From: Candidatus Dadabacteria bacterium
GTDB lineage: Bacteria; Desulfobacterota_D; UBA1144; Nemesobacterales; CSP1-2
DNA length: 64,000 nucleotides
NCBI GenBank assembly: GCA_963805855.1
Contig: CAWDVW010000005.1
Coordinates: 800,001 to 864,000 of the forward strand
Reading direction: 5' to 3'
Below the pieces are notes generated by a model that saw only the letters and a list, made by a program, of their open reading frames with translations, made no database searches and was not told the DNA's origin. The position numbers and the translations under genes were made by a program. This document shows, piece by piece, positions 15,697-35,385 of this stretch (position 1 is the first letter of the stretch; each line of letters starts with the position of its first letter).

Positions 15697-15791
15697 AAAA
15701 AAGAAAAGTGGGAATGATCTAAAGGCTTTAGAAACATTCCCACTATCTTAAAGGAGGATGGAGGATGATTTAAGTTTTCAAATTAAATACA
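15697..15791 (-). ncRNA. Candidate sRNA copy 1 with UCCUCC (anti-SD) motif
   Basis: TTGACA-17-TATATT promoter (15826-15798), ATCCTCCATCCTCCTTT, GTGGGAATG/CATTCCCAC hairpin plus U-tract; paralog at ~21.9 kb. Confidence 0.65.
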
Positions 15792-15948
15792 ATTATTAAT
15801 ATAAAGCAATTTACTTAAGTTGTCAAGTAGTTTTTTAATTTAATTAATTAATTTGCTTTTGGTTAGTATTTTTTGGTAATTTTAGATAAAATTTTTAGTC
15901 GGCCATATTTAATGTACAGAGAAACTGAATGTTTTTCTTACAACAAGT

Positions 15949-16025
15949 GGGGATGTAGCTCAGACTGGGAGAGCGCCGCCTTCGCAAGGCGGAGGTCGGG
16001 GGTTCGAATCCCCTCATCTCCACCA
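15949..16025 (+). tRNA. tRNA-Ala(CGC)
   Basis: CCGCC-TT-CGC-AA-GGCGG anticodon arm; GTTCGAATC; CCA. Confidence 0.95.
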
Positions 16026-16082
16026 CTAAATTTTATATTAATTACCTTGAGTTAAAACAATTACATTAGTGTCCATAGTCTC

Positions 16083-16300
16083 TTAATTTGTGTCTGAGGT
16101 GTCCGAATAGGTGTCTATCGCAGCCGATTTTAAGCGATTTCCTGGCTTATAGATAGCGGATTTTTTAGCCTCTTCCCAGGTATGACTGTATCGCTGCAGC
16201 ATCCTCATATCTTTATGTCCAGATATAGCCATTACGGTTGCGTTATCTTCTTTTTCATCAACTATGAGGGTCGAGACAAAAGTATGTCTCATATCGTGAA
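16083..16300 (-). pseudogene. Tyrosine integrase C-terminal remnant
   Basis: FHDMRHTF...SGHKDMRMLQRYSH; C-terminus resembles the 22326-23369 integrase; N-terminus missing. Confidence 0.85.
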
Positions 16301-16306
16301 AGCTTC

Positions 16307-16392
16307 CGGGGTAAGGTGATCTTGTATTACTACAGGGAGAAAACGCCTTCACGCCTGATATAGCGGGGTTAAAATGGCTAAACTGCACGTCC
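16307..16392. repeat. Island repeat, copy 1 (truncated)
   Basis: cggggtaaggt...gagaaaacgcc...gttaaaatggctaaactgcac; homologous to 24754, 26750, 29542. Confidence 0.75.
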
Positions 16393-16406
16393 GATTAATT
16401 GCGTTG

Positions 16407-16727
16407 TTAGATGTCATTGGTTTGTTTCCGACCTTTTTGATAGGGAACAAGAATCACTTTCTTATTACCCCAATAGATGATTAGGCCTAAAAACGCATAA
16501 CTGACAAGCGCTGGGATAAGCCACTCAAGACCTCGGAAGTACAGCAACATTGTAAAAACCAACGAAATGACAGCTATAAAGATACAGAAGGCTTGTCTGT
16601 ATTTTGTATCGGTATCGACCATGAACCTCCCTCGGCAATTGGGGCATATTCTGTAATTCTTGAAGAGGCCTTGGTGGCGAAGCTCCCTTAAACAAATCTC
16701 AATCTCGCAGTATGGACATGTTGTCAT
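16407..16727 (-). CDS. Zn-ribbon membrane protein in a cassette-like unit
   Basis: CxxC...CxxC, two TM helices; flanked by GTTAGGTG and CATCTAAC. Confidence 0.75.
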   Translation of the reverse strand: MTTCPYCEIEICLRELRHQGLFKNYRICPNCRGRFMVDTDTKYRQAFCIFIAVISLVFTMLLYFRGLEWLIPALVSYAFLGLIIYWGNKKVILVPYQKGRKQTNDI

Positions 16728-16739
16728 CGAGAGATCACA

Positions 16740-16848
16740 CCTAACTGTTAATTAGACTGCAATAATGCAGCATAATTCCCTATGAGGGATTTTATCCTGC
16801 AAATCGCTCTTCTAGTTGATACTAAGATAAATGTAATTTCTAGTCAAT
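16740..16848 (-). promoter_or_regulatory. Pc-like promoter plus attI-like site (copy A)
   Basis: TTGACT-17-TAGTAT, then ~74 bp to GTTAGGT; homologous to 30356-30466. Confidence 0.65.
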
Positions 16849-16986
16849 ATGAATGTATAGGAAAAATGAGCTACCCCCATAATAAGTCCATAACGAGAAC
16901 TAGATTTTTGATGAGCAACGCTGTAGACAGGAACTCATCAGAGTAATTAGGAAGGATTACATTTGTGAAATTTATATAATTCCATA

Positions 16987-17826
16987 CTATGCCGCCTGCC
17001 ATCTAACCTCATACAGCCGCACAGGCTCATCGAAACCACGTAGCGGTATCTCACCCTGGTCGGAAAATGGCAATTTCTTGCCGATGCACAGATCTTGTAT
17101 TACACGTGTGACCAAAATCTGTTCAGGTTTAGCATGGTCACAGATGCGAGCAGCGAGTTGGACGGTGGAGCCAAATAGATCCTGGCCTCCCGTGACGGGC
17201 TCACCAGCAGTGATGCCAATGCGAAGGTGGATAGTAGCGATGGGCTCCTTATTATTACAAGAAGCAACAGCCCTTTGAATAGACATAGCACACTCTACAG
17301 CGCGAGAAACAGAGCAAAAGGAAACCATGAAACCGTCACCTGTGTGTTTAACTTCGTTGCCATCATGAGTCTTTATAACATCGCGAATAATGGCATCATG
17401 AGTACGAAGGAGTTCCATGGCTTTAGAGTCCCCGAGGCGTGTTGTTATAGTCGTGGAACCCTCCATATCCGTGAACATGATAGTGCGAAAGGCAGAGTCT
17501 ATTATTGGTACGTTACTGGTAGGCGCAGGCGACTTGGTTGGCATTGGCGGGTCCTCAATTCTTCCAAGGAACGCCTTCACGGCCCCAGGGTTGACTTCGA
17601 TGATTTCGCTGGGAACATGTCCATGAGCTTCATGGTGCATCTGCTCTACAGCTTGTTTTCTCGGAGCCTCTATTAAACAAAAAGTCGTACCATTTGCTTC
17701 ATCAAACCAATATGTCAGGGCCTTGCAACCATACTTGTCTTGGATTTCAAGATCTTTCTGATGGGCCTCTGCAACTTCAGTTGCAGTCGTGCCTTTGATG
17801 TCATGACGATCCATATAGATAGGCAT
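16987..17826 (-). CDS. DUF4242 domain + class III nucleotidyl cyclase
   Basis: AHQKDLEIQDKYG...CLIEAP...H.EAHG; FTDMEGST, KHTGDG, DLFGSTVQLAARI. Confidence 0.88.
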   Translation of the reverse strand: MPIYMDRHDIKGTTATEVAEAHQKDLEIQDKYGCKALTYWFDEANGTTFCLIEAPRKQAVEQMHHEAHGHVPSEIIEVNPGAVKAFLGRIEDPPMPTKSPAPTSNVPIIDSAFRTIMFTDMEGSTTITTRLGDSKAMELLRTHDAIIRDVIKTHDGNEVKHTGDGFMVSFCSVSRAVECAMSIQRAVASCNNKEPIATIHLRIGITAGEPVTGGQDLFGSTVQLAARICDHAKPEQILVTRVIQDLCIGKKLPFSDQGEIPLRGFDEPVRLYEVRWQAA

Positions 17827-18594
17827 TCGATCCTCCCTGTCTCAATAAAGGCGACCTGTCTAATTATTTTATACAGCTCAATTGGAAGCCTCACTTGCAT
17901 ATGCTCAATTTTTGCATTATCCAGTTTAGGTTGTTCCATAGTAGCTCATGATAATGTATGAGCGCATGTAGGTCAATGTCAGAGATAATAAATATAGAGT
18001 TTTAAAGCAACGCTTAAAATACAGTTTCGCTATTAACGCCGTAGAGATGTTTTAATCTGAAAAGTTACACTATAACCTCTCTTAAAAAAATCTTTTAACC
18101 TTGCTTTATAGACAAGCTATAACAAGCATTTCCAAGTCTTATTTTGAGTAGAAATATCTTACATTAAGTAGTACAATTGGTGGTTGAGATTTTAAGTCAG
18201 GGGAGAGCTACTATAGTGAATTGACCCATCTGTACTGATCCCCTTTTGTCAAGAAGGGTTTAAGTTGGAATTATGTGATTCATATCTCGTTCAAACTGGC
18301 TTTGCGAGCAAGAATCCGGGGAAATTGTACGGTTCCTATCGGTTTATATTGGTTTCTTTGCATTGTCCGTATTCTAAGAACCCGCGCTGCACACCATTTA
18401 GTATGGATTCAAGGTAAATAACTACTCCGGAAATGTATCATTAGCGATTCCCGCCCTAATGGTGTTTTCTATTTATTGTTAAGCTTCGTAGTTACGAAGG
18501 GGCAGTTCTTTTTTGATTCGTCAAATATTGTAATTCAAGGTATAAAACTTTAGTATACTTATATATAGCGTACAAAATCGTTAGGAGGATTGGA

Positions 18595-19638
18595 ATGAAA
18601 TTAACTAAACCGCATGTGTTCGCTTTTGTACTCCTCTTGTACCTTATGTCCATAGGGGGCTGTAACGATAGTGAGAATTCCGGTGATGCGAATGTTCCTG
18701 CTTTAGTACCTTTTGATTTGAATGTCGCTGTGGAGTTGGCGACCCTAAGCCTTGTAGCTTATGACCAGCGTCTTCAGTGTATTAGCGGAGGTAAGGATGC
18801 GATAACGGTACCGGAAGGTTTCAAATTACAGGAGGTAATTTATCAACAGGTCGATACTAGTACGGATAGTGGTTGTAAGGACGATCCTCAGATAATCCCC
18901 ATAGCATTTATCGCAACGAAAGATGATAAAATCTTTCTCTCTTTCAGAGGGACTGCAAGCGTTTCGGATGAACTTGCAGACGCGCTGATTGAGCAAGAGC
19001 CGTTTACGTTTTTTATGATGGCTCCAGCAACCAATGCAAAGGTACAGCAAGGTTTCAACGAAGTATACATGGAGATCCGGGGGCCTATATTTGAAAAGAT
19101 AGAAGCTTTATCGAATGAGATGCAAGACGATGTGTTCAAATACAATACCTTGTTTATTACCGGACACAGCCTGGGGGCCGCACTCGCGGTGCTTGCAGTA
19201 CCCGACCTTAAGGAGGGTATTGAAAATCTTCCTCCGGTGGTAATGTACAACTTTGCCGGACCGAGTGTAGGAAATCCTGATTTTGTAGATCTGTATATGC
19301 AATCTGTACGCTCAAGCTGGAGGGTGGTAAATACGAAAGACGTTATTCCGAAACTGCCCCCGACAACGCTGGATTGCGACAATTACAGGTATGAGCATGC
19401 AGCAGGTGAATGGGATATTAAATTCGGGCCTAATCTTCCAGCTCTGCCTAAATTCAGTTGCAAAAATATTGGTATTATACAAGCTCAGATTTTGGAATAT
19501 CTATCAGATAATGAAAAGAAGGTGGAGATAGATCACAGCATGTGTACGTACCATGACACTCTTTGTGAAGAGCTCGTGGGCAATGAAGATTGTGCGGATA
19601 CCACAGACAATTCGCTCCATTGCACCCAATCTGAGTAG
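18595..19638 (+). CDS. Lipase class 3, predicted lipoprotein
   Basis: Lipobox IGGC, FRGT, GHSLG, DVIP, C-terminal His. Confidence 0.88.
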   Translation: MKLTKPHVFAFVLLLYLMSIGGCNDSENSGDANVPALVPFDLNVAVELATLSLVAYDQRLQCISGGKDAITVPEGFKLQEVIYQQVDTSTDSGCKDDPQIIPIAFIATKDDKIFLSFRGTASVSDELADALIEQEPFTFFMMAPATNAKVQQGFNEVYMEIRGPIFEKIEALSNEMQDDVFKYNTLFITGHSLGAALAVLAVPDLKEGIENLPPVVMYNFAGPSVGNPDFVDLYMQSVRSSWRVVNTKDVIPKLPPTTLDCDNYRYEHAAGEWDIKFGPNLPALPKFSCKNIGIIQAQILEYLSDNEKKVEIDHSMCTYHDTLCEELVGNEDCADTTDNSLHCTQSE

Positions 19639-19686
19639 TCAGATCGAACTATCCCGAATTAATGTTGAAATAAGCGTTTACTTTTC

Positions 19687-20817
19687 TGTACTGCTTACTT
19701 TATTATCAAGCAGCGTTTAAATGTACAGTATGATTTTTGCAATAATCCTCTTCCACCTGAATCGGCGAGCGGTATCCAAGAGCTGAATGAAGGTAATTCC
19801 GGTTGTAATAATCAACCCATTTATCCAGTCCCTTATTTAACTCCGCTTCACCCTTCCATTCCGTTAGCCAAAAGAGCTCTTCTTTCATTGTTCTTATCAT
19901 TCTCTCTGTATCTGCGTTTCCTTTAGGGTTATTGTAGCTCGTAAATACTTGCTGAACTCCCAGATTAGAACAGGTTTTAATAAAGCTGAGTGAAGTAGGC
20001 TGACTCCCGTTATCACTCATAAGCTTAAGTCCATGTCCTCTTACTCCTCCAGGGAACTCCCTGTTTAGTCCTTTCTCTAAAGCTTCCAGCCATTCTCTAC
20101 TTGTAGCTCTTGTTCCACTGTAGTGACCTACTATCTTCTTCGTATATCAGTCTAGTACTATTACAACATATACCCAGCCGCTGTCAGTGATAACCTTTGT
20201 CATATCTATTCCCCACCACTGCTTAGGCTTATTCGGTTTAGGCTTTGGTCTTTCTGACACTCTATTTGCTATTAGTCTTGGGTTAGGTTTTACAGTAAGG
20301 TTATGCTCTCTCATTAACCTGTATATACGCTTCTTGTTTATTATTAATCCATCTACAAATCGAAGATATGCCCATACTCTCCTGTAACCCCAGAAGGGAT
20401 GTTCTGGTTTTATATCTTTTATCCTTTCAAGTAAGTATTCGTTACGGAGACTTACAGAGTTTGACGGCATTCTCATATAAACTCGTCGTCTGTTTTTTTT
20501 AATTCAACAGTGAGTGAGCCTATTATTTGTTTTAACTCTTTATTCTTCTGACGGAGGCGGTCTATTTCTCCAGTGTCTTTTTTAGAATCAAACGCCTTAT
20601 GAGCTTCGGATAGAAACTTGTCACGCCAAGTGTAGTATTGGTTTTGATGTATTCCGTACTCGTTACATATCTCTGAAACAGGTCGTCCTGACAAGCCTTC
20701 AAGTACTATCTTGGTCTTGGTTTTAGAATCCCATCTTCTTCGCTTCATTGCTCCCTCTCCTTTTACCATAAAATTTACTAGCTTAATTCTACTAGCTTCT
20801 TAATGGGGAGCAGTATA
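19687..20817 (-). mobile_element. IS3-family insertion sequence; orfB interrupted by one nonsense codon
   Basis: OrfA HTH 20473-20769; OrfB WGYRR, GIDMT, SDNG, ER.IRT.KEE with in-frame TGA at 20147-20149; ends tgtactgct / agcagtata. Confidence 0.9.
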
Positions 20818-21043
20818 AATCATCAAATGGCTCTTTTTTGAATCCATTTCTTTTTTTTAGCATGACGTATGGCCTGCAGTATACTTATGCGGGAGGAAAG
20901 TTTTAATTTCTTAGATTTGATATTGTAAATCTCTTTTGAAATATGTTATATTGCTTCCGAAAATTTAAAATCACAAACACATTCGCAAGATCAATCGCTT
21001 CATAGCTTGAACAAATTAATCGAGTCGTAAAGGAGGATAGGGT

Positions 21044-21877
21044 ATGACGCGGAAAGATTTCAAGATTCATTTTTTCAAATTTGAAAGCACAGTACCAAAA
21101 TTCCTTAATATCAAACTTTACCACATTAAAATAATCCTAATCTCATTTTTTGGACTCACGCTGGTATCACTTCTGTCGTTCGTTATTGCATACAAGTATT
21201 ACAAAAGAGCTGAAATAAGTACCAATCAGAAAAGAGAACTGGCCGACCAGCTAAAGAGTCAGTCAAACGTACTAGACGAAATGAGCAAGGATGAACTTGT
21301 ATTGAAATCCAGGTTAGTAGAAATCGAAAAGAAGCTCTTGGAAATGCAGGAGTTACTTGACAAAAAGGGGATAAACAAAGAATTGTCTGTCGGAGGTAAG
21401 TACATCCCGGCCGACGGACTGGAATTATCCTATCTTGATAACATGGAAAAGGATATATATGAGCTGTTTAATGTTATCAAGAGCTATCCCCTGGGTAAGC
21501 CCATGATACAGACCGCTATCAGATCGGGTTTTGGATATAGAAGGGATCCGTTCAAATCCAGACCGGCTTTTCACTCCGGAATAGACTTCGAAGCCAAACC
21601 TGGACAGCCAGTATTTGCGACGGCTGACGGATTAGTCGAAAAAGCGGGCTGGTACTATAGTTATGGCAACACGGTAATAATCAACCATGAAAACGGGTAC
21701 GAAACACTTTATGGACACTTAACAAGGGCAGATGTGAAAGAAGGACAAAGGGTGAAGAGTGGCGATCTTATTGGCAATGCAGGTTCCACTGGAAGGTCCA
21801 CTGGGACACACCTGCATTACGAAATAATAAAAAACGGCAAGAAGCTAAACCCCTCTAAGTACTTAAGTTTAAAGTAA
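21044..21877 (+). CDS. M23 family metallopeptidase
   Basis: HSGID, YGH, STGRSTGTHLHYE; N-terminal TM and coiled coil. Confidence 0.92.
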   Translation: MTRKDFKIHFFKFESTVPKFLNIKLYHIKIILISFFGLTLVSLLSFVIAYKYYKRAEISTNQKRELADQLKSQSNVLDEMSKDELVLKSRLVEIEKKLLEMQELLDKKGINKELSVGGKYIPADGLELSYLDNMEKDIYELFNVIKSYPLGKPMIQTAIRSGFGYRRDPFKSRPAFHSGIDFEAKPGQPVFATADGLVEKAGWYYSYGNTVIINHENGYETLYGHLTRADVKEGQRVKSGDLIGNAGSTGRSTGTHLHYEIIKNGKKLNPSKYLSLK

Positions 21878-21904
21878 CTTTATTCTCAGCAAACTTATTT
21901 CGTA

Positions 21905-21996
21905 AATTTCTAGAGGGAATGCTCCCGGGTTTAGAAACATTCCCACTTTAAAGGAGGATAAAGGATGAAATGCGTTAAGTTGAAGGGCTAAGTGTA
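21905..21996 (-). ncRNA. Candidate sRNA copy 2 with UCCUCC motif
   Basis: Consensus TTGACA-17-TATAAT (22031-22003), ATCCTTTATCCTCCTTT, GGGAATG/CATTCCC hairpin. Confidence 0.6.
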
Positions 21997-22210
21997 ATAT
22001 CGATTATAAAGTAAGTTACTTAATGTGTCAAGAGGAAAAGTTCTTTCTCTTCTAATACCCCTAACTCGTTACAAAAAAGCTAATTTCTTCTTGAAAGTTG
22101 AACCCGCCATGATATACTGACCAAATCAACATATAAAAATTAAACCCTGCATCGAAAAACTATTAACAATCCTCATGTCGGTTTGAAACATACTCCAAAA
22201 TAGTAACCTT

Positions 22211-22282
22211 GGCGGCGTAGCTCAGAGGTAGAGCAGGGCTCTCATAAGGCCTTTGTCGGAGGTTCGATTCCTCCCGCCGCCA
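22211..22282 (+). tRNA. tRNA(CAT), probably elongator Met (Ile2 not excluded); CCA not encoded
   Basis: GGCGGCG/CGCCGCC acceptor stem, CTCATAA loop, GTTCGATTC. Confidence 0.9.
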
Positions 22283-22325
22283 GTAATGATTTATCAATAC
22301 ATAAAGCTAGTTATATAGAAGTAGT

Positions 22326-23369
22326 TTAGAAATGAGTCTTGGGCATAACTAGCGAGGTGTCCGAGGAGGTGTCTATATCCGCTAATTCGACAGCCCTTTT
22401 CTTATGTTCTGGCGTCGGGTGAGAATACCGCTTTGTCATAGCTATTGTTTTATGTCCTAGCAACTCTTGAACCGTTACTATATCAACTCCAGCCATTATC
22501 CCTCTTGTAGCAAAGGTATGCCTCAAAGTATGGAATGTACAATGCGCGATTCCGGAACGCTTTAGAGCAGTTCCAAATGATCTATAAATATATTCTATTG
22601 GCTTTCCGTCCCTATAGGAGAATAGATATTCATCATCAGTATTATTTTTTAAGTCCACAAGAATCCTTGTTAGACGCTGGCTCATGGGAATAGCTCTTGA
22701 TTCATAGTTTTTACTATCCCTTACAATGATGTATCCATTCTCAAAGTCTATATCTTCCCACTTTAAGTTAAGAATCTCGCCTTTACGCATCCCCGTGGAT
22801 CTTGCTACAAAAAGTATCGGTTTCAGGTGAAGGGAAGCCGAATTATAAAGGAGTTGAAATTCTTCATCGCTAAGCACTCTAGGTTTCTCTAAAGGCGTCT
22901 TAAAAAACTTTACCCCCTTTACTGGGTTTTGATCTATTTTCCCCCAATGGATAGCCAGGTTAAATATCCTTTTGAAAACCGTCATCTCTCTATTTATTGT
23001 AGATAGAGCTTTACCTTCCTCTTTTCTAAAAGACTTATATTTCTCAACATGCCATGAAGTAATACTGCCAAGTGGCATTTTACCGAAATGTCTATTCAAT
23101 ACTTTACTTATGGTTATATCCCTCTTGTAGGAGCGATGATTGTCCTTTGCATAGTTTAAATATTCCTCCACGATCCGGCTAAATAGAATCGGCTTCATTA
23201 CTTTTTCTAACCCGAACTTACCTTGGACTATTTCCCCCACTCTTGCTTTTAGCGCTTTTTCTGCCGTTGATCTTGTTATCTTATCTATATGCCCTACGAC
23301 TTCTCTTTTACGTTTTCCATTATAGTAATAATCGATATACCAACGATTACCTTTAATATATACTCCCAT
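22326..23369 (-). CDS. int: Phage-type tyrosine integrase
   Basis: GMRKGE, K(NY), HTLRH, LGH, RYSH catalytic set; N-terminal arm-binding domain. Confidence 0.95.
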   Translation of the reverse strand: MGVYIKGNRWYIDYYYNGKRKREVVGHIDKITRSTAEKALKARVGEIVQGKFGLEKVMKPILFSRIVEEYLNYAKDNHRSYKRDITISKVLNRHFGKMPLGSITSWHVEKYKSFRKEEGKALSTINREMTVFKRIFNLAIHWGKIDQNPVKGVKFFKTPLEKPRVLSDEEFQLLYNSASLHLKPILFVARSTGMRKGEILNLKWEDIDFENGYIIVRDSKNYESRAIPMSQRLTRILVDLKNNTDDEYLFSYRDGKPIEYIYRSFGTALKRSGIAHCTFHTLRHTFATRGIMAGVDIVTVQELLGHKTIAMTKRYSHPTPEHKKRAVELADIDTSSDTSLVMPKTHF

Positions 23370-23578
23370 TACTTAGACCTCCTACTTTTTATTTTTTGTA
23401 TTGGCAAAGAAGGCTCTTTAATTTCGTGGCCTTCTTGTTTCATTAATTCGTGGATTAAAGCCCTGATTACCTCGGATGCCGTTAACATGCTATCTTCAGC
23501 ATATTTATTCAGAAATTCCAACTCCTTTTCATGTAGCCAAACCCTAAATAATTTGGTTCTTAATCTCTTCTGTCTCAT
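23369..23578 (-). CDS. Ribbon-helix-helix DNA-binding protein (possible Xis/regulator)
   Basis: FRVWL..KE.E.L..YA......SEVIRALI; TAATG overlap with int. Confidence 0.7.
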   Translation of the reverse strand: MRQKRLRTKLFRVWLHEKELEFLNKYAEDSMLTASEVIRALIHELMKQEGHEIKEPSLPIQKIKSRRSK

Positions 23579-23586
23579 GTAACGAT

Positions 23587-23615
23587 ATTATAGCTACATA
23601 TCTTATGGTAGTCAA
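23587..23615 (-). promoter_or_regulatory. Sigma-70 promoter for RHH-int operon
   Basis: TTGACT-17-TATAAT ending 8 nt before the ATG. Confidence 0.7.
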
Positions 23616-23735
23616 GTGTTGTTTTGAACCTTTCAACTAATAAGGGAATATACTTTATTGTGAGATGTAAACAATCTGAAAGAACGGCGATGTAATGTCT
23701 TTTCAAACTTCAAACAGTTAAACAAAAATGATATA

Positions 23736-24212
23736 ATGTACACCATGAAAGAAATAGCTAAAACCGATATAAAACTGTCAGATTTTCCACCTAAATTGAG
23801 GAAAATTATCGATTATATAGTAGAAAATAAGGATTTTTATGACTTGGATGAAGCTATCAGTCAACTTGGCTTGAATCCTCATTCTATATCTACTATGAAA
23901 AGCAGGTTGAAGAAAAAGGGAATAGTTTTAGAAGATTATATCTACAATAAGAGAAATGAGAGGATAAAAAAGTATGTCCCTTACGTTGATAATAGTTTGG
24001 TAAATAGGGCTATCTCAGGATCGGCTAAGCACCAGGAATTATTTTATAAGAGAACCGGTGAACTGGTAAACAAACATGAAATAGACTACAGGGTAACTGG
24101 CCTATTCGCAGTATTTAGTCCTGGCACTAAAATGCCAGCGAAATTGATAGAAGAGGATAAGGTCCTTAAACCTAATGGAGTGCAGATTATAGATGCAGAG
24201 ATTGAGGATTGA
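23736..24212 (+). CDS. HTH protein, terminase small subunit-like
   Basis: N-terminal HTH, 'L.NRA.SG.AKH.ELFY..TG' segment and acidic tail (IDAEIED) recall TerS proteins. Confidence 0.5.
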   Translation: MYTMKEIAKTDIKLSDFPPKLRKIIDYIVENKDFYDLDEAISQLGLNPHSISTMKSRLKKKGIVLEDYIYNKRNERIKKYVPYVDNSLVNRAISGSAKHQELFYKRTGELVNKHEIDYRVTGLFAVFSPGTKMPAKLIEEDKVLKPNGVQIIDAEIED

Positions 24213-24239
24213 GGCCACTATATCTAGTAATTCAATCCA

Positions 24240-24268
24240 GGTTCGTATAAGAATCAATTATGTAAACT
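24240..24268 (+). other. dif-like XerC/XerD site
   Basis: GGTTCGTATAA-gaatcaa-TTATGTAAACT versus E. coli dif GGTGCGCATAA-N6-TTATGTTAAAT. Confidence 0.7.
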
Positions 24269-24753
24269 TTCCCCTCCCCTAACTTGCCTTAATTCCTACT
24301 AAATAAAAGTGGCATAAAATACCCTCAATATAATCATTGGTTCTAATGTATATTAATACGTTCTTATAGGATCAATACACCCTAGAATGGGTATTTATTA
24401 GCTGTAAAGGTATGTTCTTTTGATGATCTATGCCTTAAATAAACATAACTGACTATTATCTCTTTCCCTTCCAGAATCCTTAAACCCCAATATGTTGTGT
24501 TATATATCCCCAAATGCACATCACCTTATGACTCTATGCTATGATGCAACCACCATTTAAATTAAGGATTGAAGTAAAATTGTAGAGGATTTTTAATTGA
24601 AATGAATGATAAAGTGTTCCGGAAAATGAAGGGCGGGGGAGGGTATGAGAAGAAGCCACCGGAGTCTATGCGCCCATCCCCCTGGGGGTTGCCACCCCCT
24701 CCCCCCTCCCGTATACGCTATACCCCACCTCTTGATTAGGGCAAAAAAATTCT

Positions 24754-24874
24754 CGGGGTAAGGTTATGTATCAAATCAACGAGAAAACGCCTCTACGTCG
24801 GTTACAGCGGCGTTAAAATGGCTAAATTGCACATGCCAATACTTCACCTGGCGAACAATGTGAGATAGGTTTTT
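24754..24874. repeat. Island repeat, copy 2
   Basis: gagaaaacgcc...ggctaaattgcacatgccaatacTTCACCTG-N8-TGTGAGATA. Confidence 0.8.
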
Positions 24875-25387
24875 CATCACCGATTGTTAACGTTTTAGTC
24901 CGGATTAGTCACAGTATTCTAACTCTGCAAAATTTTACCTCCTTTCTTGTCTTGACCTCGTACGTGATGCTAATTGAAATATGCTTAATTCAGATATTTG
25001 CACGACAATTTGTTTGCCACAAAAAACACACCCAACATTCCTATTGACTCATAAGATTTAACTGTGATATAGTCTAGTTTCCGAAACGGGTATGCAGTAA
25101 TCATATAATCTAGTGGAGATGGGGGTAAAGTGATGATGTGGCAATTACTTGTGGTTACATTTCAGTGGATAGACCCTTCTAGTTTTATACCAATTCCAAG
25201 TCGTATCAACAAGCCCCACAAAAATATTAGGAAAGTTTTGTTCAAAACCAATCCTGTTAATACCTGTAGCACTTGGGGGGTGATTCCAATCGACAATGTT
25301 AGCCCCTAAGTTTGGTGACAACCAAACCGACGGGGATTACGAAGTCAGATGTAAAACTATGTAAAAAAATGATAGGAGGTGTATACC

Positions 25388-25804
25388 ATGAATCAATTTC
25401 CAAAGTGGCTTTTACATCGTGTGTTCTTTCCGTTGACCCTAGTGATGTTAACTAATTTGGGTGCTATATCAGGCGAACTACATGCATCTGTTGTCAACTT
25501 CGAACCAGGAGCCGTTCCAAGGGATAGAACGGCTGAATGTATGGTCACGAATGTAGGGAGCTCGACCAGGGAGGTCGGAGTACAAATCACCTCACTGCCC
25601 GAGACAATGGTACCTTTACTTACTGTAACGTTAGAACCGGGAGAAATAAGCGGTCTAGTAGTTGATATTTCCCCAGCATTTTCAGTTCTAGCTTATTGCA
25701 GCTTTTATTTTTCGGGTTCCAATTCTGATATGCGAGGCATAATTAGAGCGGTGGATCGATCAACCGGAGAGGCCATTGTTTTAGAACGTGCAGAGGCGCG
25801 GTGA
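25388..25804 (+). CDS. Secreted hypothetical protein (small beta-rich domain, 2 Cys)
   Basis: AGGAGG RBS, signal-peptide-like N-terminus, downstream terminator. Confidence 0.7.
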   Translation: MNQFPKWLLHRVFFPLTLVMLTNLGAISGELHASVVNFEPGAVPRDRTAECMVTNVGSSTREVGVQITSLPETMVPLLTVTLEPGEISGLVVDISPAFSVLAYCSFYFSGSNSDMRGIIRAVDRSTGEAIVLERAEAR

Positions 25805-25814
25805 TGAGATTTTG

Positions 25815-25838
25815 AAAGGGGGCCTCGGCCCCCTTTTT
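25815..25838 (+). terminator. Intrinsic terminator
   Basis: aaagggggcc-tc-ggcccccttttt. Confidence 0.85.
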
Positions 25839-26091
25839 GTTCGGTCTGATTATTAATTAAGGCAACTTAAAGAAGTCATTATAAAAGAGGAATGTACTGC
25901 TCCCCTTTTGTCAAGATGGGTTTAAGTTGGAAACATAAAGAATAAATGCTTTCAATAATCCATTTCCGAACTCATCTCGACCATTGACTATTACTTTCGA
26001 AATATTGTATTGTACTTGCGATGACGACGAGTGTAATTCATCCCTCTAGTCTCACCAAGTAAGTGTTGTTACATTTTCAAGGAGGAGAAAA

Positions 26092-26658
26092 ATGGGCTAC
26101 GGCAGAATACTTGCAAGCCTCACATTGACCGGGATTTTACTTGTTTTTTGCAGCCAGGCTGTCCTGGCTGGTCAGCAAGTCTTTGCAGCACGAGTGTGCG
26201 CAGGAGACGATACGGTCTTAGAGCCTTGCGACACCGGCGTGGATGTGAGCTCGGATTTCCTGGTAACAGGTTGGGACCAAGCTGAAGTGTATGCCTCGTC
26301 CGGAAAGCGGATCGTTCCGGAATCAGACGGAATTCGCATCAACAAGACGGGATTTTATCGGGTTGTGTTTGAGACCACGGTGTTATATAGCGCGAACGCC
26401 GTGGAACAGACTCCAGACACAGCGGGTAACCTTTATTTGCGCGACAGTGATGACCAATTCCTTGGTTCTTGCAGCACGGCCCCAGCGAAAGCGGCATCGC
26501 TGTTGGAGTGGGCCCAGGGATTCTTCGTAACAGAGTGCATCTGGTCAGGAACGCTTAAATTCGAGAAAGGTGATGTATTCAAGCTGTACTTTGTCTTGGG
26601 CAGTGAGCCCGGAGCGCCAAGCTCCGTTCAGGTTCGCCTCGATGTTAGTCGCTTGTAA
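26092..26658 (+). CDS. Secreted protein, C1q/TNF-like beta-sandwich possible
   Basis: Signal peptide; 'GIRINKTGFYRVVF...LKFEKGDVF.LY' pattern. Confidence 0.65.
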   Translation: MGYGRILASLTLTGILLVFCSQAVLAGQQVFAARVCAGDDTVLEPCDTGVDVSSDFLVTGWDQAEVYASSGKRIVPESDGIRINKTGFYRVVFETTVLYSANAVEQTPDTAGNLYLRDSDDQFLGSCSTAPAKAASLLEWAQGFFVTECIWSGTLKFEKGDVFKLYFVLGSEPGAPSSVQVRLDVSRL

Positions 26659-26749
26659 GCAGCGCAATTAGTGAATACGAACCGGGAGGACACTCCTCCC
26701 TCCGGCTCTTGCTCATAAAGCCCGCTGGCACGCTAACGAAAGTTTTCTA

Positions 26750-26888
26750 TATCTCACAGCCTCTGACAGGTGAAATCATGGTTGTTAAAGATTTCTCCAG
26801 GGAGAAAACACCTCCACGCCCTTCACAGCAGCGTAAAAACGGCTAAATTGCACATGCCAATACTTCACCTGACAGTCAACGTCAGTTA
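26750..26888. repeat. Island repeat, copy 3 (most complete, with terminal inverted boxes)
   Basis: TATCTCACA-N8-CAGGTGAA ... TTCACCTG. Confidence 0.8.
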
Positions 26889-27042
26889 ATAATTGGATGA
26901 CTCACCAAACAGAAAAGCCTTTCTTAATCTTCTATACCAAAATCGAGGGTTATTCATATTAGATATAAATAATTTAAAACTTCTCTTGACAAGCGTACCC
27001 GCAGCCTGTATTAGACTTATATAGGGAATAAACATAAATAAT

Positions 27043-27128
27043 AGTTCTAAACGATGAGGGCTACCCCGTTAGGGGACGCAAAGCCGTAGGTCTTAAGCAT
27101 TTGCTTAAGGTAGCTTGGTTGCCGAACT
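27043..27128 (+). ncRNA. c-di-GMP-I (GEMM) riboswitch
   Basis: GGGC..CCCC-GTTA-GGGG-ACGCAAAGCC..GGTCTTAAG..GGTAGC..GTTGCCG; P1 AGTT..CG/CGAACT. Confidence 0.85.
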
Positions 27129-27319
27129 TAGAGCTATTGCCTTTCTTAGTTCTTCCTTCCCAATCAGCTCCCGGCTTTTCTTTCAATTAACAGCCCTTAT
27201 CAATTGGAAATGCGATTGGGGAGGTAATGCCTATTGAAAACTAAACGATTTAGGAGTGATAAGATCCGTAAGTGTGACTTGCCGAATTTTTCTTAATTTA
27301 ACAATGGGGGTATGGTTAC

Positions 27320-28270
27320 ATGTTAAATAAAAATTTAAAGTTTATTTTGATATTAGTCGCCAGTCTGGTTTTCCCGATTAAAGGTTGGGGAGGTGCTGTC
27401 CCTGCGTTTTTTAATGCTAAGACAGATGACGCCTCTTTCCAGCTTTATTATGTCTGGGACTTAAGGAATAGGGATAGTTATTTTCAGGTTTTTAATACTA
27501 GTGAGCTTCAGTCCGTTACAGTACATATCCAAGTATTTGATGCGACAGATGGGACCGAATCCAGTTGTGAAATTCGCGATTACTATGACACGTATACACC
27601 CAGGGACACTCATGTCTACAACCTTCGTAATTTAGATAGAAATAATGGGCACTTCTTGTTTCCCCCTTTTCCCGCGGACGGGTTCGGTTTTGTTGTGGTA
27701 ACTGTTGTTACAGGTGAGGAAGGCGTCGCTGTTCAGAATCCGGTCCTGATAGGTAACTTCAGGATAATAGATAATGCTGGCTATGAGTACAGATCAAATG
27801 CGGCAGGCTATCCTAATACCCTAGGCGAGGTGGCGCTACCTCCCCCAATTAGCACATATTCGTTCAACTTTAACAATGCTGATGGTAAGACATTTGCAGA
27901 TGTAGTTGGTATTGCAGTTTTTCATGCCGGTCCTGGTCCTGGGTTCAATCGTGTCATTGCAAATCCGACATATCGTGCGAATTTTGATGAAGTAACCATC
28001 ACTGATGAGAATGAAGACGCTGATATTTGTCCACCAGTTACATTTGCATGCGGGGCAGGGGCAGACTTTGATCTAGGTATTGACACTGCTGTCAAGAACA
28101 GCAAGGGTGTGAGCGTTATTTGCCCTGAGTCCCATATAGAAGATGTAGGTTTTGTTAAGCTCGAAGAAACCGAATCTAGTTCAACAACGGCAGACTTCTT
28201 TGTTGGATTTATAGGGCTTAACAACGGAGGTCGCACCGGAAGCATGGATTCTTTCACCGCGGTGCCGTAA
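27320..28270 (+). CDS. Secreted hypothetical protein
   Basis: Signal peptide; WDLRNRDSYFQVFNT...C...DTYTPRDTHVYNL. Confidence 0.8.
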   Translation: MLNKNLKFILILVASLVFPIKGWGGAVPAFFNAKTDDASFQLYYVWDLRNRDSYFQVFNTSELQSVTVHIQVFDATDGTESSCEIRDYYDTYTPRDTHVYNLRNLDRNNGHFLFPPFPADGFGFVVVTVVTGEEGVAVQNPVLIGNFRIIDNAGYEYRSNAAGYPNTLGEVALPPPISTYSFNFNNADGKTFADVVGIAVFHAGPGPGFNRVIANPTYRANFDEVTITDENEDADICPPVTFACGAGADFDLGIDTAVKNSKGVSVICPESHIEDVGFVKLEETESSSTTADFFVGFIGLNNGGRTGSMDSFTAVP

Positions 28271-28321
28271 AAATTGTTCAGAGTTTATGTTTCAGAAGAT
28301 TTAAGAAGAGGAGAAATAACC

Positions 28322-29341
28322 ATGTTAAAAAATTCGAAAATAAAATCAATCGCTTTTGCGAGTATACTGGTTTTAATTATTGGATTTAGCCATTCTTATG
28401 AGGCCCGAGCACTGGAGCTATGTCCTGTTGGTTCGTTTGCGAATGGGGCAATAACTATTAACGTAGCGCCCGGCGTCTCTGATGTTGATTTTGTGGGTGG
28501 GCTTTTAGGCACGTTTGAAAGCAGTGGTAAAGGAAAGGTAGTTGGGGGTATTGATTGGCTATACAACAAAGATAATGAAAGTAGTTTTGAGACTTCTTCA
28601 ACTGCACCGCAACTTATTGGATATTGGAATCAAGATAAGAGGAGGAACACTTTTATTCAGGTTACAAATACCAATCAAGGCAGCCCCGTTTCACTTTCTA
28701 TAGAACTTTTGGATGAGAACTGCTTAGATCCCTTAAGTTTTTGTGATACGCTTTCGCCCGGAGACACACATGTCTATAACTTAGGGGGAATTAAGGTAAA
28801 AGAATTCAAAGAACCTATAATGATCACCAATGACGGAAGCGTTCTTGTAGATAATATTCAAGGGCATGAGGGGATTTTTGTGGTGACTCCGATTATTGAA
28901 TGTGGTGTAGACAGAAGGGCAATTGAGTTTCCGTTTTTGCATGGTGATATTCGAGTAATAGATGACAAAAATAAATTTGACTACGGAGCCAAAATGTGGG
29001 CGAGGGGCGCCAATACCTCTGGTTGCGAAGACCAAACCGGGGGGTTTAACATTTTAGATGGAACGGAATATTGTAAATTTCGAGACGTCCTGCCATCCAA
29101 ACTGAGTCAGGTCTTTTCGACTATTTCAAACCCGGTAAATGCTAGGTCTGATATAATTTTATTTGCCCTGACCGATTCATATTCGGACGATATTTACACC
29201 CCTTCTTCAAATTCATCATTTGTAACTTTTAACCCAGCTATTCTTGATGAGGACGAGCTTTCTTTGAGCTGTCTTGGAGAGACTGTGTGTTTTGCGAGAT
29301 TTGGATTAAATGAGACGATCCCAATAAGTAAGAAAAAGTAA
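28322..29341 (+). CDS. Secreted hypothetical protein, paralog of the upstream gene
   Basis: ATG after AGGAG; shares RNTFIQVTNT...C...DTLSPGDTHVYNL and G.IR.ID motifs. Confidence 0.8.
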   Translation: MLKNSKIKSIAFASILVLIIGFSHSYEARALELCPVGSFANGAITINVAPGVSDVDFVGGLLGTFESSGKGKVVGGIDWLYNKDNESSFETSSTAPQLIGYWNQDKRRNTFIQVTNTNQGSPVSLSIELLDENCLDPLSFCDTLSPGDTHVYNLGGIKVKEFKEPIMITNDGSVLVDNIQGHEGIFVVTPIIECGVDRRAIEFPFLHGDIRVIDDKNKFDYGAKMWARGANTSGCEDQTGGFNILDGTEYCKFRDVLPSKLSQVFSTISNPVNARSDIILFALTDSYSDDIYTPSSNSSFVTFNPAILDEDELSLSCLGETVCFARFGLNETIPISKKK

Positions 29342-29541
29342 GATAGTCAGAAGGAGTGGGAAGGTTAGTCCTAGACCCTATACTCAAATGCCTTGCTTCT
29401 TGAGTTCTAATTTTATATTTATTGGATTTCTTATACTGCTCCCCACTGACACCCTTCAATATTTACCAACAACTCATCTCAAATAGGCTGTATACTATTA
29501 TTAGAATGAAATTAGTATGTGCATGGTGTGAGAGAGTTATT

Positions 29542-29610
29542 GCAGCGTTAAAATGGGCTAATTTCCACCTACCAATACTTCACCTGACGGACAATGTGAG
29601 ATAGGTTTTG
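29542..29610. repeat. Island repeat, copy 4 (right half)
   Basis: gcagcgttaaaatggg...ccaatacTTCACCTG-N8-TGTGAGATAgg. Confidence 0.8.
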
Positions 29611-29714
29611 ATTCCCCTTTCGTTAAGATTGGGTTAAGTCGGGTTTAATACACATTAATGCTATTGACTTAAACAAGTGAATTATGATATAGTGGTATCC
29701 ATAACGTCACAGAC

Positions 29715-30068
29715 ATGAAAAAGAAAGTCGAGCGTAAATTCCTAACAGGTCTAAAATTAAAGCCCTTAAAGTTGGTTGCTGCAACTCCTGTCGAGCTCTT
29801 TGGACATGTTACTTTAGTTGAAGGGTACGACCTACCGAGCTATATCGGTTGCCATGCACTAGTGGCCCTGCGTGACACACCTGGAAAAACAGTTGCAGTA
29901 CTGACTTCAGAGCATCGGCTGCAGACTCTATTAGAATCAGCCCTCGTCAGCGGTAACCTGATAGCTTTTTGGGGACAGAAACTATCTAGTCCTCCAACTC
30001 CTGCTGGGGGTACATGGATAGTGGACGTATACAGTATTGACCGTGTGATACTTTACAACTTCGTGTAA
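29715..30068 (+). CDS. Hypothetical protein
   Basis: 117-aa ORF with TTGACT..GATAT promoter-like sequence upstream. Confidence 0.6.
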   Translation: MKKKVERKFLTGLKLKPLKLVAATPVELFGHVTLVEGYDLPSYIGCHALVALRDTPGKTVAVLTSEHRLQTLLESALVSGNLIAFWGQKLSSPPTPAGGTWIVDVYSIDRVILYNFV

Positions 30069-30195
30069 TTATCTTTTAAGTACTACAAAGCAGCAAGTGA
30101 GCAGTACTACTGCCGTCCTACCTATCAAAATTCCTCCTCATAGAGAAAATGCGTATCTAAAAGGTGGAATGCCTATTGGGATGGGAGCACAGAGT

Positions 30196-30331
30196 TGTAC
30201 TGCTCCCCTTTTATCAAGTTCGAGTTATGAAGAATGTAGTGTTTCCTCCGTTTCTCATCCGCCCGTTTCCGATTATGCCCACTAAGCCTATCTATTGCTT
30301 TACTCATGGTCTTACTATAGGGGATAGGCCA
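30196..30331. mobile_element. MITE-like remnant with IS3-type ends
   Basis: tgtactgctccccttttatcaag ... atggtcttactataggggataggcca; ends match other IS termini in the window. Confidence 0.55.
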
Positions 30332-30355
30332 TTTTTGGTTTTTCCATATTTTCCC

Positions 30356-30466
30356 ATTGACTAGAAATTACATTTATCTTAGTATTAAAAACAAGAGCGA
30401 TTTGCAGTATAACACCCCTCATGGGAAATCATACTACATTTTCTCACTGTAATTAATAAGTTATGT
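30356..30466 (+). promoter_or_regulatory. Pc-like promoter plus attI-like site (copy B)
   Basis: 30-bp identity with 16819-16848 (reverse complement); TTGACT-17-TAGTAT; GTTATGT core at 30460. Confidence 0.7.
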
Positions 30467-30511
30467 GGCGGAGAGCGCGTCGCAACAACCGGATGATGAG
30501 GATAAGGTTAC

Positions 30512-31204
30512 GTGAAGTCTAACAGTGAAAGACACTTTTCGCAAAGGATCGGCTGGCTACGGGCGGCGGTACTGGGCGCCAACGACGGCATCGTATCTAC
30601 GGCGAGCTTAGTAATGGGCGTCGCAGCCGCCGATGCCGCGCGTGGAAATGTATTAATTGCAGGTGTCGCGGGGCTGGTTGCTGGTGCAATGTCAATGGCC
30701 GCTGGTGAGTATGTCTCGGTTAGCTCACAAGCCGACACGGAGAAAGCTGACTTACACCGAGAGCGACTTGAGCTTGAATCTAACCCTGAGTTTGAACGCC
30801 GAGAATTGGCTCGAATATACGTTGAAAGGGGCCTGGATTCTTCCCTTGCCAGCCAAGTAGCTGAGCAACTAATGAAACACGACCCACTAGCAGCCCACGC
30901 GCGCGATGAATTGGGCCTATCGGAGGCGCATTCTGCGCGCCCCGTTCAAGCGGCTTTAGCTTCAGCCGGCACCTTCGCCGTGGGTGCTGCTCTACCTCTC
31001 TTGATGGTGTTGATTGCACCGCCGAGATTACTCATGGCTTCTGTAGCAGGGAGTTCGTTGGTCTTTCTTGCCCTTTTGGGGTGCTTGGCTGCGCGTGCTG
31101 GTGGTGCCAACATGGTAATTAGCGCAGGTCGCGTTACTTTCTGGGGCGCACTGGCTATGGCCCTCACTGCCGGAATTGGAGCGCTGTTCGGAGCCGTAAT
31201 TTGA
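30512..31204 (+). CDS. VIT1/CCC1 family Fe/Mn transporter (integron gene cassette)
   Basis: LRAAVLGANDGIVS, AMSMAAGEYVSV; higher GC than surroundings; flanked by core site and attC. Confidence 0.93.
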   Translation: MKSNSERHFSQRIGWLRAAVLGANDGIVSTASLVMGVAAADAARGNVLIAGVAGLVAGAMSMAAGEYVSVSSQADTEKADLHRERLELESNPEFERRELARIYVERGLDSSLASQVAEQLMKHDPLAAHARDELGLSEAHSARPVQAALASAGTFAVGAALPLLMVLIAPPRLLMASVAGSSLVFLALLGCLAARAGGANMVISAGRVTFWGALAMALTAGIGALFGAVI

Positions 31205-31221
31205 AAAGGAACAGGGCGGCC

Positions 31222-31280
31222 ACATAACAAGTCGCTGCAACAGACCAGCTAACGCTAGCTGCTGAACTCTGTCGTTATAC
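31222..31280 (+). other. attC site (59-base element)
   Basis: R'' ACATAAC, L'' GCTGCAAC, stem CAGCTA/TAGCTG, L' GCTGAAC, R' GTTATAC. Confidence 0.85.
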
Positions 31281-31457
31281 GACTTAATTTGCAAATTATA
31301 AGGGTCAAACTAAAGGTATTAACCCCACACTCGCCCTACCCGAAAATTCTCAAGCCATCCCTCAAACTCAGGTGGTGAAATATATACCCGCTTGCAAGTT
31401 TTATGCTTTGAAATTTAATCCCAATTGAGAAGAAAATGGCCGTATACTTTTATTAGG

Positions 31458-31646
31458 ATGAAATTAGTCTGTGCCTGGTGTGAGAGTGTTATAGCAGGGC
31501 CAATAATAGGTATTGAGGGTGGTGATGAGGTAGCCCCTTTCATCTGCAAAGGCTGTTTCTACGAGGTGTTTGAGGAAGGCGATAAGGCAGATATTTCCGA
31601 GCTATATGCAGCGATACAGGCTAAGAGTGGAAGATATGAGAATTAG
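31458..31646 (+). CDS. Small Zn-binding phage-type protein
   Basis: MKLVCAWC...ICKGC; truncated second copy at 29506. Confidence 0.6.
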   Translation: MKLVCAWCESVIAGPIIGIEGGDEVAPFICKGCFYEVFEEGDKADISELYAAIQAKSGRYEN

Positions 31647-31670
31647 GTCAGAGTATGAACGACATAATAA

Positions 31671-31874
31671 TTAGTTTCCGCAATTCGAGCATTTAAAATG
31701 GTTGGGATTCGATTTTATAAAATCTAGTAACTCATTAAGATCATCTATGGTTGGGATATCGTCTCGCAGGTGAACAGGTTTTTTGCACACGTTGCGATAT
31801 CTCGCTATTTCAATTTGATCTCTACCTCCCATTTCTGGAGAACTAACTCTAATTAAAAATTTATCAGCAGACAT
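31671..31874 (-). CDS. Small hypothetical protein
   Basis: 67-aa ORF, GGGGGAAG RBS-like sequence, C-terminal CxxC. Confidence 0.45.
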   Translation of the reverse strand: MSADKFLIRVSSPEMGGRDQIEIARYRNVCKKPVHLRDDIPTIDDLNELLDFIKSNPNHFKCSNCGN

Positions 31875-31948
31875 GATTTACTTCCCCCCAAGTAAGTAGG
31901 ACCAAAGCAGATTGTTGCTATATTATTACCTAATCGGGTTCATTGGGT

Positions 31949-32090
31949 CTACCCCTCTCTGTCAAGCCCAGCCTAAGTTGAAATCATAGAGAATGTAACC
32001 CTTCATAGCCACTCTGACGACCTACTGTCTACAGGTCAGCTCATCAAAAATCTAACTTAGACTATGGTCCTATTATAGGGGGGCAGGCCA
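31949..32090. mobile_element. MITE-like IS3 end remnant
   Basis: 32046-32090 nearly identical to IS end 34603-34646. Confidence 0.65.
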
Positions 32091-32227
32091 TAGGTTAGGT
32101 CTCTAGGTGATCGCGGTTTCCGGGGGCTTGACAACTTCTCATAAAATTGATCCTTGACATTAGTATATGGTTATGAGAAATTAGTATATGGTTATGAGAA
32201 AATAGAAAAATGAGGGAGGTAAATGAT

Positions 32228-33172: not shown

Positions 33173-33359
33173 AGACTGAGGGATGCTGATTTTGCCGAAG
33201 TGCAACTGCAGGATGGGGTGGATCCCCCGAAGATCCGCCTGGATGTTGAATATGCAAAAGAATACTTCAGAATCAACGAACTTGCTCAGAGGGACATGGA
33301 TTTGATTATTGAAGAGTTAAGAGAGGTAGGTGTTCTTGATGAGAGTTAATCTGCAAAAG

Positions 33360-34646: not shown

Positions 34647-35122
34647 CTTAGACTTATAGAGCCTCCTTTTATTTTTTCCCAAGCATGAAGCAGATGATCC
34701 GATGTATAAAAATAAACGCGGCCTCTTCCACCAACCCGTACGCGTCGATCAAATAGGGTGGGGGCAACCTTGTTTAAATAGGATAATGCTAAGTTAGACA
34801 TATCGTCGTTAATGTCCGAACTTAAGTCTTTCCAATGAAATAATGTCTCCCATACTACGGCTGCCGGGGGTATCTTGCTTGGAAAGTATTCGTTTAATTT
34901 TGTGTAGTATTCTTTCCCAACTTCTAATACATAAGAGTCGGTCCATCGAAATTCACGTTCTTCAAGACCACCAGACCCACTAGATGAATCCAAGGATTTT
35001 GAAAATTCCTCCTGAAGGTTTTGCCAAAATTCTATATATTGTTTGGAACTTCTTCCGAACCATAGAACGAAATCATTAATTTTCAGTGCTTCAATAAGAA
35101 GATTCGGATCTTTGGAGTCCAT
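34601..35122 (-). CDS. Hypothetical protein; C-terminus truncated by the IS end
   Basis: Last residues (GLPPYNRTIVKLDF) read through the IS terminal repeat. Confidence 0.55.
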   Translation of the reverse strand: MDSKDPNLLIEALKINDFVLWFGRSSKQYIEFWQNLQEEFSKSLDSSSGSGGLEEREFRWTDSYVLEVGKEYYTKLNEYFPSKIPPAAVVWETLFHWKDLSSDINDDMSNLALSYLNKVAPTLFDRRVRVGGRGRVYFYTSDHLLHAWEKIKGGSISLSGLPPYNRTIVKLDF

Positions 35123-35385
35123 TTATTTATCAAGTGTCTCTACAAAATCGTCATAGGAGCCATCATACGGAATTTCATTAAAGCTATAATTTTTTAGTAC
35201 TTTTCTACCCTCAAAAAATGGGGGGAATAATATTGAGGTGTCCGAGGAGGTGTCTATATTGTCCCGTTTAGGATGGGTTTGTTTGCGTTTGGACACTAAT
35301 ATAGTATTGATATAAGTGCCTAGAATTTCAAGGGAATATAGTTAGTTGTGCTTTGTACGGTTTTGTATCCTTTTGAGGCCTAAAC

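Follow-up and report, generated by a model that had tools for sequence, protein, structure and literature searches.

Precedents for the pairing mechanism considered in this study are the csRNAs of Streptococcus (PMC3091779) and LhrC of Listeria monocytogenes (PMC4132741). The csRNAs are encoded by 2-6 sibling genes per genome with strong intergenic promoters and terminators (PMC3091779) in a host without Hfq (stated for streptococci in PMC4132741), and they expose an unpaired sequence complementary to the Shine-Dalgarno (SD) sequence and the AUG start codon, all siblings being under one regulator. LhrC1-5 are multicopy, CU-rich small RNAs (sRNAs) which block translation of a surface-protein mRNA without Hfq and are part of an envelope-stress response (PMC4132741). 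We describe here two elements which share all of these features of the csRNAs, including, presumably, the single regulator, and which resemble LhrC1-5 in being multicopy and CU-rich and, as predicted here, in an Hfq-independent block of translation that forms part of an envelope response. They are located at 15697-15826 and 21905-22031, both on the minus strand, in a 64,000 nucleotide (nt) stretch of Candidatus Dadabacteria bacterium (GCA_963805855.1, contig CAWDVW010000005.1, positions 800,001-864,000, forward strand), hereafter the window. A first-pass annotation had proposed them as members of an undescribed family of sibling sRNAs with an anti-SD seed, and our best model is that they are two of four sibling sRNAs predicted to act in trans.

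Our analysis also reveals differences from both systems. The activator of the csRNA genes is the response regulator CiaR, which acts at direct repeats (NTTAAG-N5-TTTAAG) preceding the -10 hexamer (PMC3091779), whereas the sites at the present promoters are inverted repeats, one in the spacer and one past the transcription start, a geometry typical of a repressor, and do not show the CiaR repeat. No Rfam or sequence match to csRNA models was found, and the host belongs to a Gram-negative lineage in which type II secretion appears to be co-regulated. The LhrC RNAs are 111-114 nt in length, have three redundant UCCC sites, placed in two loops and a linker, and are induced by the two-component system LisRK (PMC4132741), whereas one linear 21-nt seed and a single conserved hairpin are present here and no homology was found. 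The predicted way of working is similar to that of csRNA and LhrC, but the elements are members of neither family. What is new is the predicted regulon, consisting of a twin operator, type II secretion and HtrA, together with pilQ as a conserved predicted target. A further parallel to the model proposed below is the sigma-E regulon of enterobacteria, in which an RNA arm lowers envelope-protein synthesis while DegP/HtrA and assembly machinery rise; its sRNAs MicA, RybB and MicL are Hfq-dependent, transcribed with an extracytoplasmic function sigma factor and not siblings of one another. In contrast, the present genes have a sigma-70 promoter with twin palindromes, and Hfq was not found in any of five genomes, in which the search controls were positive.

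The predicted sRNA of copy 1 is about 95 nt in length (15697-15791, minus strand; start placed 7 nt past the -10 hexamer; 84.9 bits with the covariance model described below) and that of copy 2 about 92 nt (21905-21996, minus strand; 64.2 bits), the latter having diverged more than any other of the four genomic copies. On the minus strand both promoters have the form TTGACA-17-TATA(T/A)T. Copy 1 has TTGACA at 15821-15826 and TATATT at 15798-15803 (11/12 consensus positions), and copy 2 has TTGACA at 22026-22031 and TATAAT at 22003-22008 (12/12), so that the near-consensus sigma-70 promoters claimed in the first-pass annotation are borne out, as are the positions, core and hairpins of the two elements. 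The core of both copies reads UCAUCCU(CC/UU)AUCCUCCUUUAA and is the complement of AAGGAGG-N7-AUGA; in copy 1 it forms the single-stranded seed UCAUCCUCCAUCCUCCUUUAA (15748-15768, minus strand), combining anti-AUG and anti-SD sequence, while the seed of copy 2 (21948-21968, minus strand) differs from the family consensus by two C-to-U changes. The intrinsic terminator of copy 1 (15697-15743, minus strand) consists of a hairpin at 15743-15708 followed by the U-tract that had already been noticed, at 15707-15697, whereas the terminator hairpin of copy 2 (21913-21946, minus strand) lacks a clean U-tract. The hairpin arm with a retained partner, also noticed earlier, is a 17-nt sequence which occurs exactly twice with zero mismatches, 0.38 occurrences being expected even with up to 3 mismatches. 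Folding z-scores on the minus strand are -4.27 (whole unit) and -6.28 (hairpin) for copy 1 and -2.50 (whole unit) and -4.39 (hairpin) for copy 2, against +0.63 for copy 2 on the plus strand.

Comparison with relatives separates the parts of the element that behave as RNA from those that behave as DNA. The covariation check proposed in the first-pass annotation reveals that 12 of the 13 pairs of the terminator helix have changed on both sides while 88.2% of the alignment cells remain paired; the covariation score of the whole structure was reached by 0/500 shuffles and by no slid register, a result which kinship among the sequences inflates. The core is nearly invariant and unpaired (median unpaired probability 0.88 in 60 sequences, with 46/60 at 0.8 or more). 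Not noticed before were two 17-bp palindromes per element, putative operators of the form TTAAG-N7-CTT[T/A]A, which are 32 bp apart in 32/33 elements and 33 bp apart in the remaining one. Site 1 is located between the -35 and -10 hexamers (15802-15818 in copy 1, 22007-22023 in copy 2) and site 2 just within the transcript at about +6 to +22 (15770-15786 in copy 1; 21975-21991 in copy 2, where the left half is degenerate and the matrix score is 4.1). The possibility that site 2 forms a 5' hairpin in the RNA was rejected, as 36, 30 and 40 of 59 sequences cannot form the respective inner pairs; because its ends are invariant, its inner pairs broken and useful covariation absent, site 2 is best read as a site in DNA. 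The two sites overlap a consensus promoter and are three helical turns apart, which suggests a repressor that binds cooperatively.

The genome contains two further copies (E 6.8e-18 and 2.5e-14), which were missing from the first-pass annotation. A DNA search with copy 1 found matches in 47/61 relatives, and a covariance model built from 60 sequences (threshold E up to 0.01) found them in 58/61 relatives and in 99/120 genomes of the phylum, counts which include weak matches. In another order of the phylum 3/19 genomes matched, all at E 0.002 or above; we regard these matches as fortuitous. The operators are lost in that order and in g18. A search of 185,579 genomes for the exact 19-nt core found it in 115 stretches. 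Titles of the 80 listed are mostly Dadabacteria, Thermodesulfobacteriota, Deltaproteobacteria or uncultured bacterium; seven are titled Spirochaetia and one Brocadia, which probably reflects labelling, because those listed share the same architecture. A twin site is present within 85 nt of the exact core in 102/116 of the matches listed. Several of the core matches that lack one are window-edge effects, two (L113 and L120) resemble chance, and one (L136) is a hairpin without such a promoter. In some relatives two sRNA genes stand in tandem, separated by 270-370 bases (L078; G088:C203; G093:C15; G099:C32).

A search of Rfam 15, which had also been suggested in the first-pass annotation, gave no match to the element at gathering threshold and, with E allowed up to 10, nothing better than E 0.71, far under gathering; elsewhere in the window Rfam matched only tRNAs and a cyclic di-GMP (c-di-GMP) riboswitch. 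No prior description of this RNA was found in listings of the open literature, although the tables of a genome-wide motif catalogue may include it. On this comparative evidence the elements belong to a real, lineage-wide, multicopy family of predicted sibling sRNA genes of about 95 nt which is absent from Rfam. The sibling family with an anti-SD seed, as first proposed, is supported by order-wide multicopy conservation, a covarying terminator and a single-stranded core. The divergent orientation from a tRNA gene, in contrast, is true of both window copies, which stand next to tRNA-Ala(CGC) (15949-16025, plus strand) and tRNA-Met(CAT) (22210-22283, plus strand), both outside the elements, but it is not a trait of the family. 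Neither the third nor the fourth copy is near a tRNA, and a tRNA lies within 1.5 kb of the element in 12/30 loci, 18/30 being without one. The tRNA adjacency is incidental.

The same palindromes connect the sRNA genes with protein secretion. A pattern combining the -35 hexamer with site 1 occurs at exactly five places in the genome, namely the four sRNA genes and the promoter of gspC, the first gene of the type II secretion operon (gspC-K). The twin-site promoter is present upstream of gspC in 30/30 of the best gspC loci (25 by pattern and 5 by coordinates), and of eight more distant gspC regions 2 have it in clear form, the other 6 having a degenerate version or none, while a reversed control pattern gave one match in 61 genomes. 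The gspC start is located directly after site 2, and its leader has no SD in any of the 24 located; the median leader-core duplex is -2.4 kcal/mol, compared with -9.8 kcal/mol genome-wide. Because its leader has no SD, gspC would escape the sRNA. A general escape of the regulon was rejected, as htrA and the gene for a protein of about 209 amino acids (aa) described below have strong SDs and only gspC is SD-less.

Twenty regions around further twin sites in relatives were examined. Eleven head an operon whose first open reading frame (ORF) ends in LRSPP and is followed by a gene for the ~209-aa protein of unknown function, with an HtrA-like gene next wherever the available DNA reached. The remaining sites head htrA directly (3), a type III polyketide synthase (2) or extra sRNA copies (3), and one is probably chance. 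Pfam confirmed HtrA in L184 and L193 only. These arrangements show that one predicted twin-site promoter drives the sRNAs, the gspC-K operon and, in some relatives, htrA-containing operons.

The LRSPP ORF (L180-L190; e.g. L184:1483-1884, plus strand) is 132-147 aa in length, has an N-terminal hydrophobic segment and ends in LRSPP without exception in 11/11. It resembles the RAPP-like arrest peptides ApdA and ApdP (PMC12992588, bioRxiv 10.1101/2023.09.02.556018), and RSPP is reported in PMC12992588 to be partly permissive for arrest. Unlike ApdA and ApdP, it precedes an uncharacterised gene and htrA instead of sec or yidC, and arrest is only presumed; by analogy it is a candidate ribosome-arrest secretion monitor upstream of these two genes. 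This leader ORF was not found in the present genome. The ~209-aa protein (L184:2017-2646, plus strand) has no Pfam family, and its atlas leads are all under 0.85; homologues are encoded in this genome at C5:341426-341974, C5:~996500 and C6:~92100, one of them convergent to the third sRNA copy. In the two relatives with the polyketide synthase (L195:1403-2578, L196:1880-3055) the twin-site promoter heads an operon of this gene and an aminotransferase.

The most consistent predicted target of the core is the mRNA of PilQ, the type IV pilus secretin encoded in the pilMNOPQ operon (assigned with Pfam). The duplex between the core and the pilQ start is about -27 kcal/mol in all three genomes considered, pilQ being the one gene with such a score in each of them. 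Among 30 pilQ orthologues the median duplex is -23.95 kcal/mol and AGGAGGAT is present in 18, a duplex of -23.9 kcal/mol being reached by only 5/2467 genes of this genome; the neighbours pilP and pilO have AGGAGGAT in 1/28 and 0/16. Comparison of 13 ortholog groups, each with at least 6 distinct start regions, gave AGGAGGAT in 20 of 35 distinct pilQ start regions (median duplex -23.2 kcal/mol) and in 11/19 start regions of the lipoprotein gene after pilQ, against 1/120 in the other 11 groups. In one genome (G005) all 21 nt of the core are matched perfectly by the pilQ start, whose start codon stands opposite the anti-AUG. The elements have two properties of a trans-acting sRNA in that each is a stand-alone gene with its own promoter, a covarying intrinsic terminator and no conserved ORF, and in that complementarity to an mRNA in trans is conserved for pilQ.

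Beyond pilQ, the predicted targets lean towards exported proteins, gene starts and export signals being assigned by crude rules (longest ORFs, best SD, hydrophobicity) and not by trained predictors. In this genome export signals are present in 20/29 genes with AGGAGGAT and in 136/443 other genes with GGAGG (p=5e-5). This wider bias was replicated in one of two further genomes. With a near control, G057 gave 19/23 against 10/19 (p=0.049); of 42 and 105 matches the first 30 each were examined, and 7 and 11 rows of these were dropped. When 61 genomes were scanned with an extended match, 48 sites were found outside the sRNA genes, of which 17 are pilQ starts by coordinates and 2 belong to the gene after pilQ; 23 of the other 29 start ORFs, 20 of these with export signals and one of them another pilQ. 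In total, exported proteins are encoded at 39/42 of the sites that start a gene. For the matches outside pilQ this bias is not circular. A candidate local target is the start region (21027-21046, plus strand) of an M23 peptidase gene (21044-21877) convergent with copy 2, with a predicted duplex of -22.9 kcal/mol.

We consider it probable that the elements are Hfq-independent sibling sRNAs which damp the synthesis of exported proteins in an envelope or secretion response. A putative dimeric repressor would occupy both the spacer site and the site at about +6 to +22, and its release would yield more secretion machinery, periplasmic protease and sRNAs. The sRNAs would then pair, without Hfq, across the SD and start codon of mRNAs with a AGGAGGAU(GG) start region, and translation of the paired mRNAs, mostly for exported proteins and chiefly for PilQ, would fall. 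The trigger would most likely be envelope or secretion load, a suggestion drawn from the co-regulated genes only. It is also conceivable, though doubtful, that the system is an RNA-based secretin switch, in which one repressor frees the type II secretion operon, immune through its SD-less leader, together with sRNAs that silence PilQ and other exported proteins, trading pili for secretion, and in which HtrA is gated in some relatives by the LRSPP peptide as an export-monitoring arrest peptide. Regulatory RNAs are almost unknown in uncultured phyla. If the model is true, the envelope-response design of csRNA, LhrC and sigma-E arose independently in a Gram-negative lineage without Hfq, and a small RNA would couple type II secretion inversely to type IV pili, a related machine, a link for which our literature search found no example. 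Because the regulon is readable and the predicted target conserved, the family can be tested with simple E. coli reporters.

Several points weigh against the damping of exported proteins. No regulator gene was evident in a matrix scan of intergenic sites of the genome, and none was identified when five regulator families were profiled in five genomes. Both htrA homologues of this genome are without twin sites. In genus g16, pilQ was not found with the query used in 14/14 genomes, yet a variant sRNA is kept. In family f7, pilQ has no SD, the sRNA cores have diverged and gspC was not found in 6/6 genomes; compensatory changes between f7 cores and f7 pilQ starts were sought and not found, those starts being without SD. 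Contigs assembled from four RNA runs cover the tRNA and a few genes but neither element; as RNAs shorter than 100 nt drop out of contigs and of ordinary libraries, this bears neither way on transcription. Related genomes are non-independent samples. The export test with AGGAGGAT was post hoc, one of about a dozen splits. In the second replication, in G022, all 21 matches and 30 of the 67 control matches were examined, 5 rows being dropped from each; the result was 11/16 against 20/25, with one paralog family dominating the control, and the pooled replication gave p=0.46. The share of pilQ among the extended matches is circular because the pattern was drawn from pilQ starts. That family f7 had lost the sRNA together with gspC was considered and rejected, as the sRNA is matched in 6/6 genomes, 5 of which have the promoter and a diverged core and 1 just the hairpin.

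Two candidates for the regulator deserve mention. A DtxR-like gene, so labelled from its sequence, fitted by presence pattern and was rejected, as its own promoter has a different palindrome. A conserved XRE gene near the pil operon remains a candidate; no site is present upstream of it, and the twin site is absent from its own promoter. This XRE-type regulator of about 140 aa (G000:C5:59590-60004, minus strand; L344-L347) is present in 4/5 genomes tested; here and in at least two other genomes only a few kb separate the gene from the pil operon. To our knowledge none of the HspR, GacA, NrdR, DdrO, BlaI or LexA boxes matches the twin palindrome.

The failed replication in G022 would be expected if the RNAs were real but broadly damped every mRNA that has a strong SD, without selected targets, so that pilQ and the exported proteins rank by SD only. 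This we regard as unlikely, even though further results also tell against selected targets. A strong SD alone enriches for export signals about threefold (74/203 against 97/824 with weak SD; genome G000), ranking of targets by duplex energy adds no export enrichment after matching for SD strength, and the core shares CCUCCUUU with the 3' tail of the 16S rRNA of this genome. However, pilQ of several families retains AU(GG) behind the SD (19/35), which other SD-bearing ortholog groups lack, one pilQ start matches the core perfectly over 21 nt, and genes with AAGGAGG not followed by AT show no export enrichment (40/115).

Several copies per genome would suit titration, and a nearly invariant, unpaired core overlapping the sequence of the 16S tail, together with the fact that no Hfq was found, would fit an RNA which acts as a decoy, mimicking the 16S rRNA 3' tail or a C/U-rich protein site and titrating a ribosomal factor or nuclease. 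Such a role is improbable, because it leaves the matching conservation on the mRNA side, in pilQ, unexplained and because CsrA was not found in 5/5 genomes with positive search controls. Unlike in a sponge of the CsrB/RsmY type, the GGA motifs are located on the non-transcribed strand.

Orthologous copies precede, on the same strand, an SCO-like ORF in 12/49 loci and a lipoprotein-like ORF in 13, both labelled from sequence. This raises the question whether the elements are cis-acting leaders or attenuators, or promoter-terminator cassettes which merely titrate the repressor, with a core that has no function as RNA. We hold this to be very unlikely. Both window copies face convergent genes, and the invariant core is placed between operator and terminator whereas the gspC and htrA promoters lack it and have operators alone. 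The stem sequence of the terminator is free to vary while its pairing is kept. Least credible, and largely refuted, is that the perfect SD and ATG on the plus strand start a small peptide, the alternative named in the first-pass annotation, or that the element is tRNA-linked or mobile-element cargo, as the tRNAs with integrase genes after them beside both window copies might suggest: no conserved peptide was found on either strand of 33 elements, the plus-strand frames of which range from 1 to >30 codons and share only codons fixed by the core, the promoter and U-tract are on the minus strand, the copies are upstream of the tRNAs and outside the island with a duplicated tRNA end at 35394-35433, 18 of 30 loci have no tRNA, and viral contigs gave 0 matches.

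Other features of the window and the genome were also observed. The tRNA-Met gene is the integration site of the downstream island (22283-35433), which contains a tyrosine integrase gene (22326-23369) and ends in the duplicated tRNA 3' end (35394-35433). A similar integrase remnant (16083-16388) follows tRNA-Ala, and a short sequence is common to both ends. Between the two copies is a transposase region (19706-20769) with HTH_Tnp_1, HTH_21 and integrase-core ORFs in three pieces. The c-di-GMP-I riboswitch (27049-27126) precedes two exported proteins (27320-28270 and an ORF starting at 28322), the first without a Pfam family; paralogues of these proteins are tandemly expanded in relatives, and their starts could pair with both halves of the core. 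ARAGORN reports two transfer-messenger RNA genes in the genome (G000:C5:1042821-1043204 and C7:669041-669397), one of which has an unusual tag.

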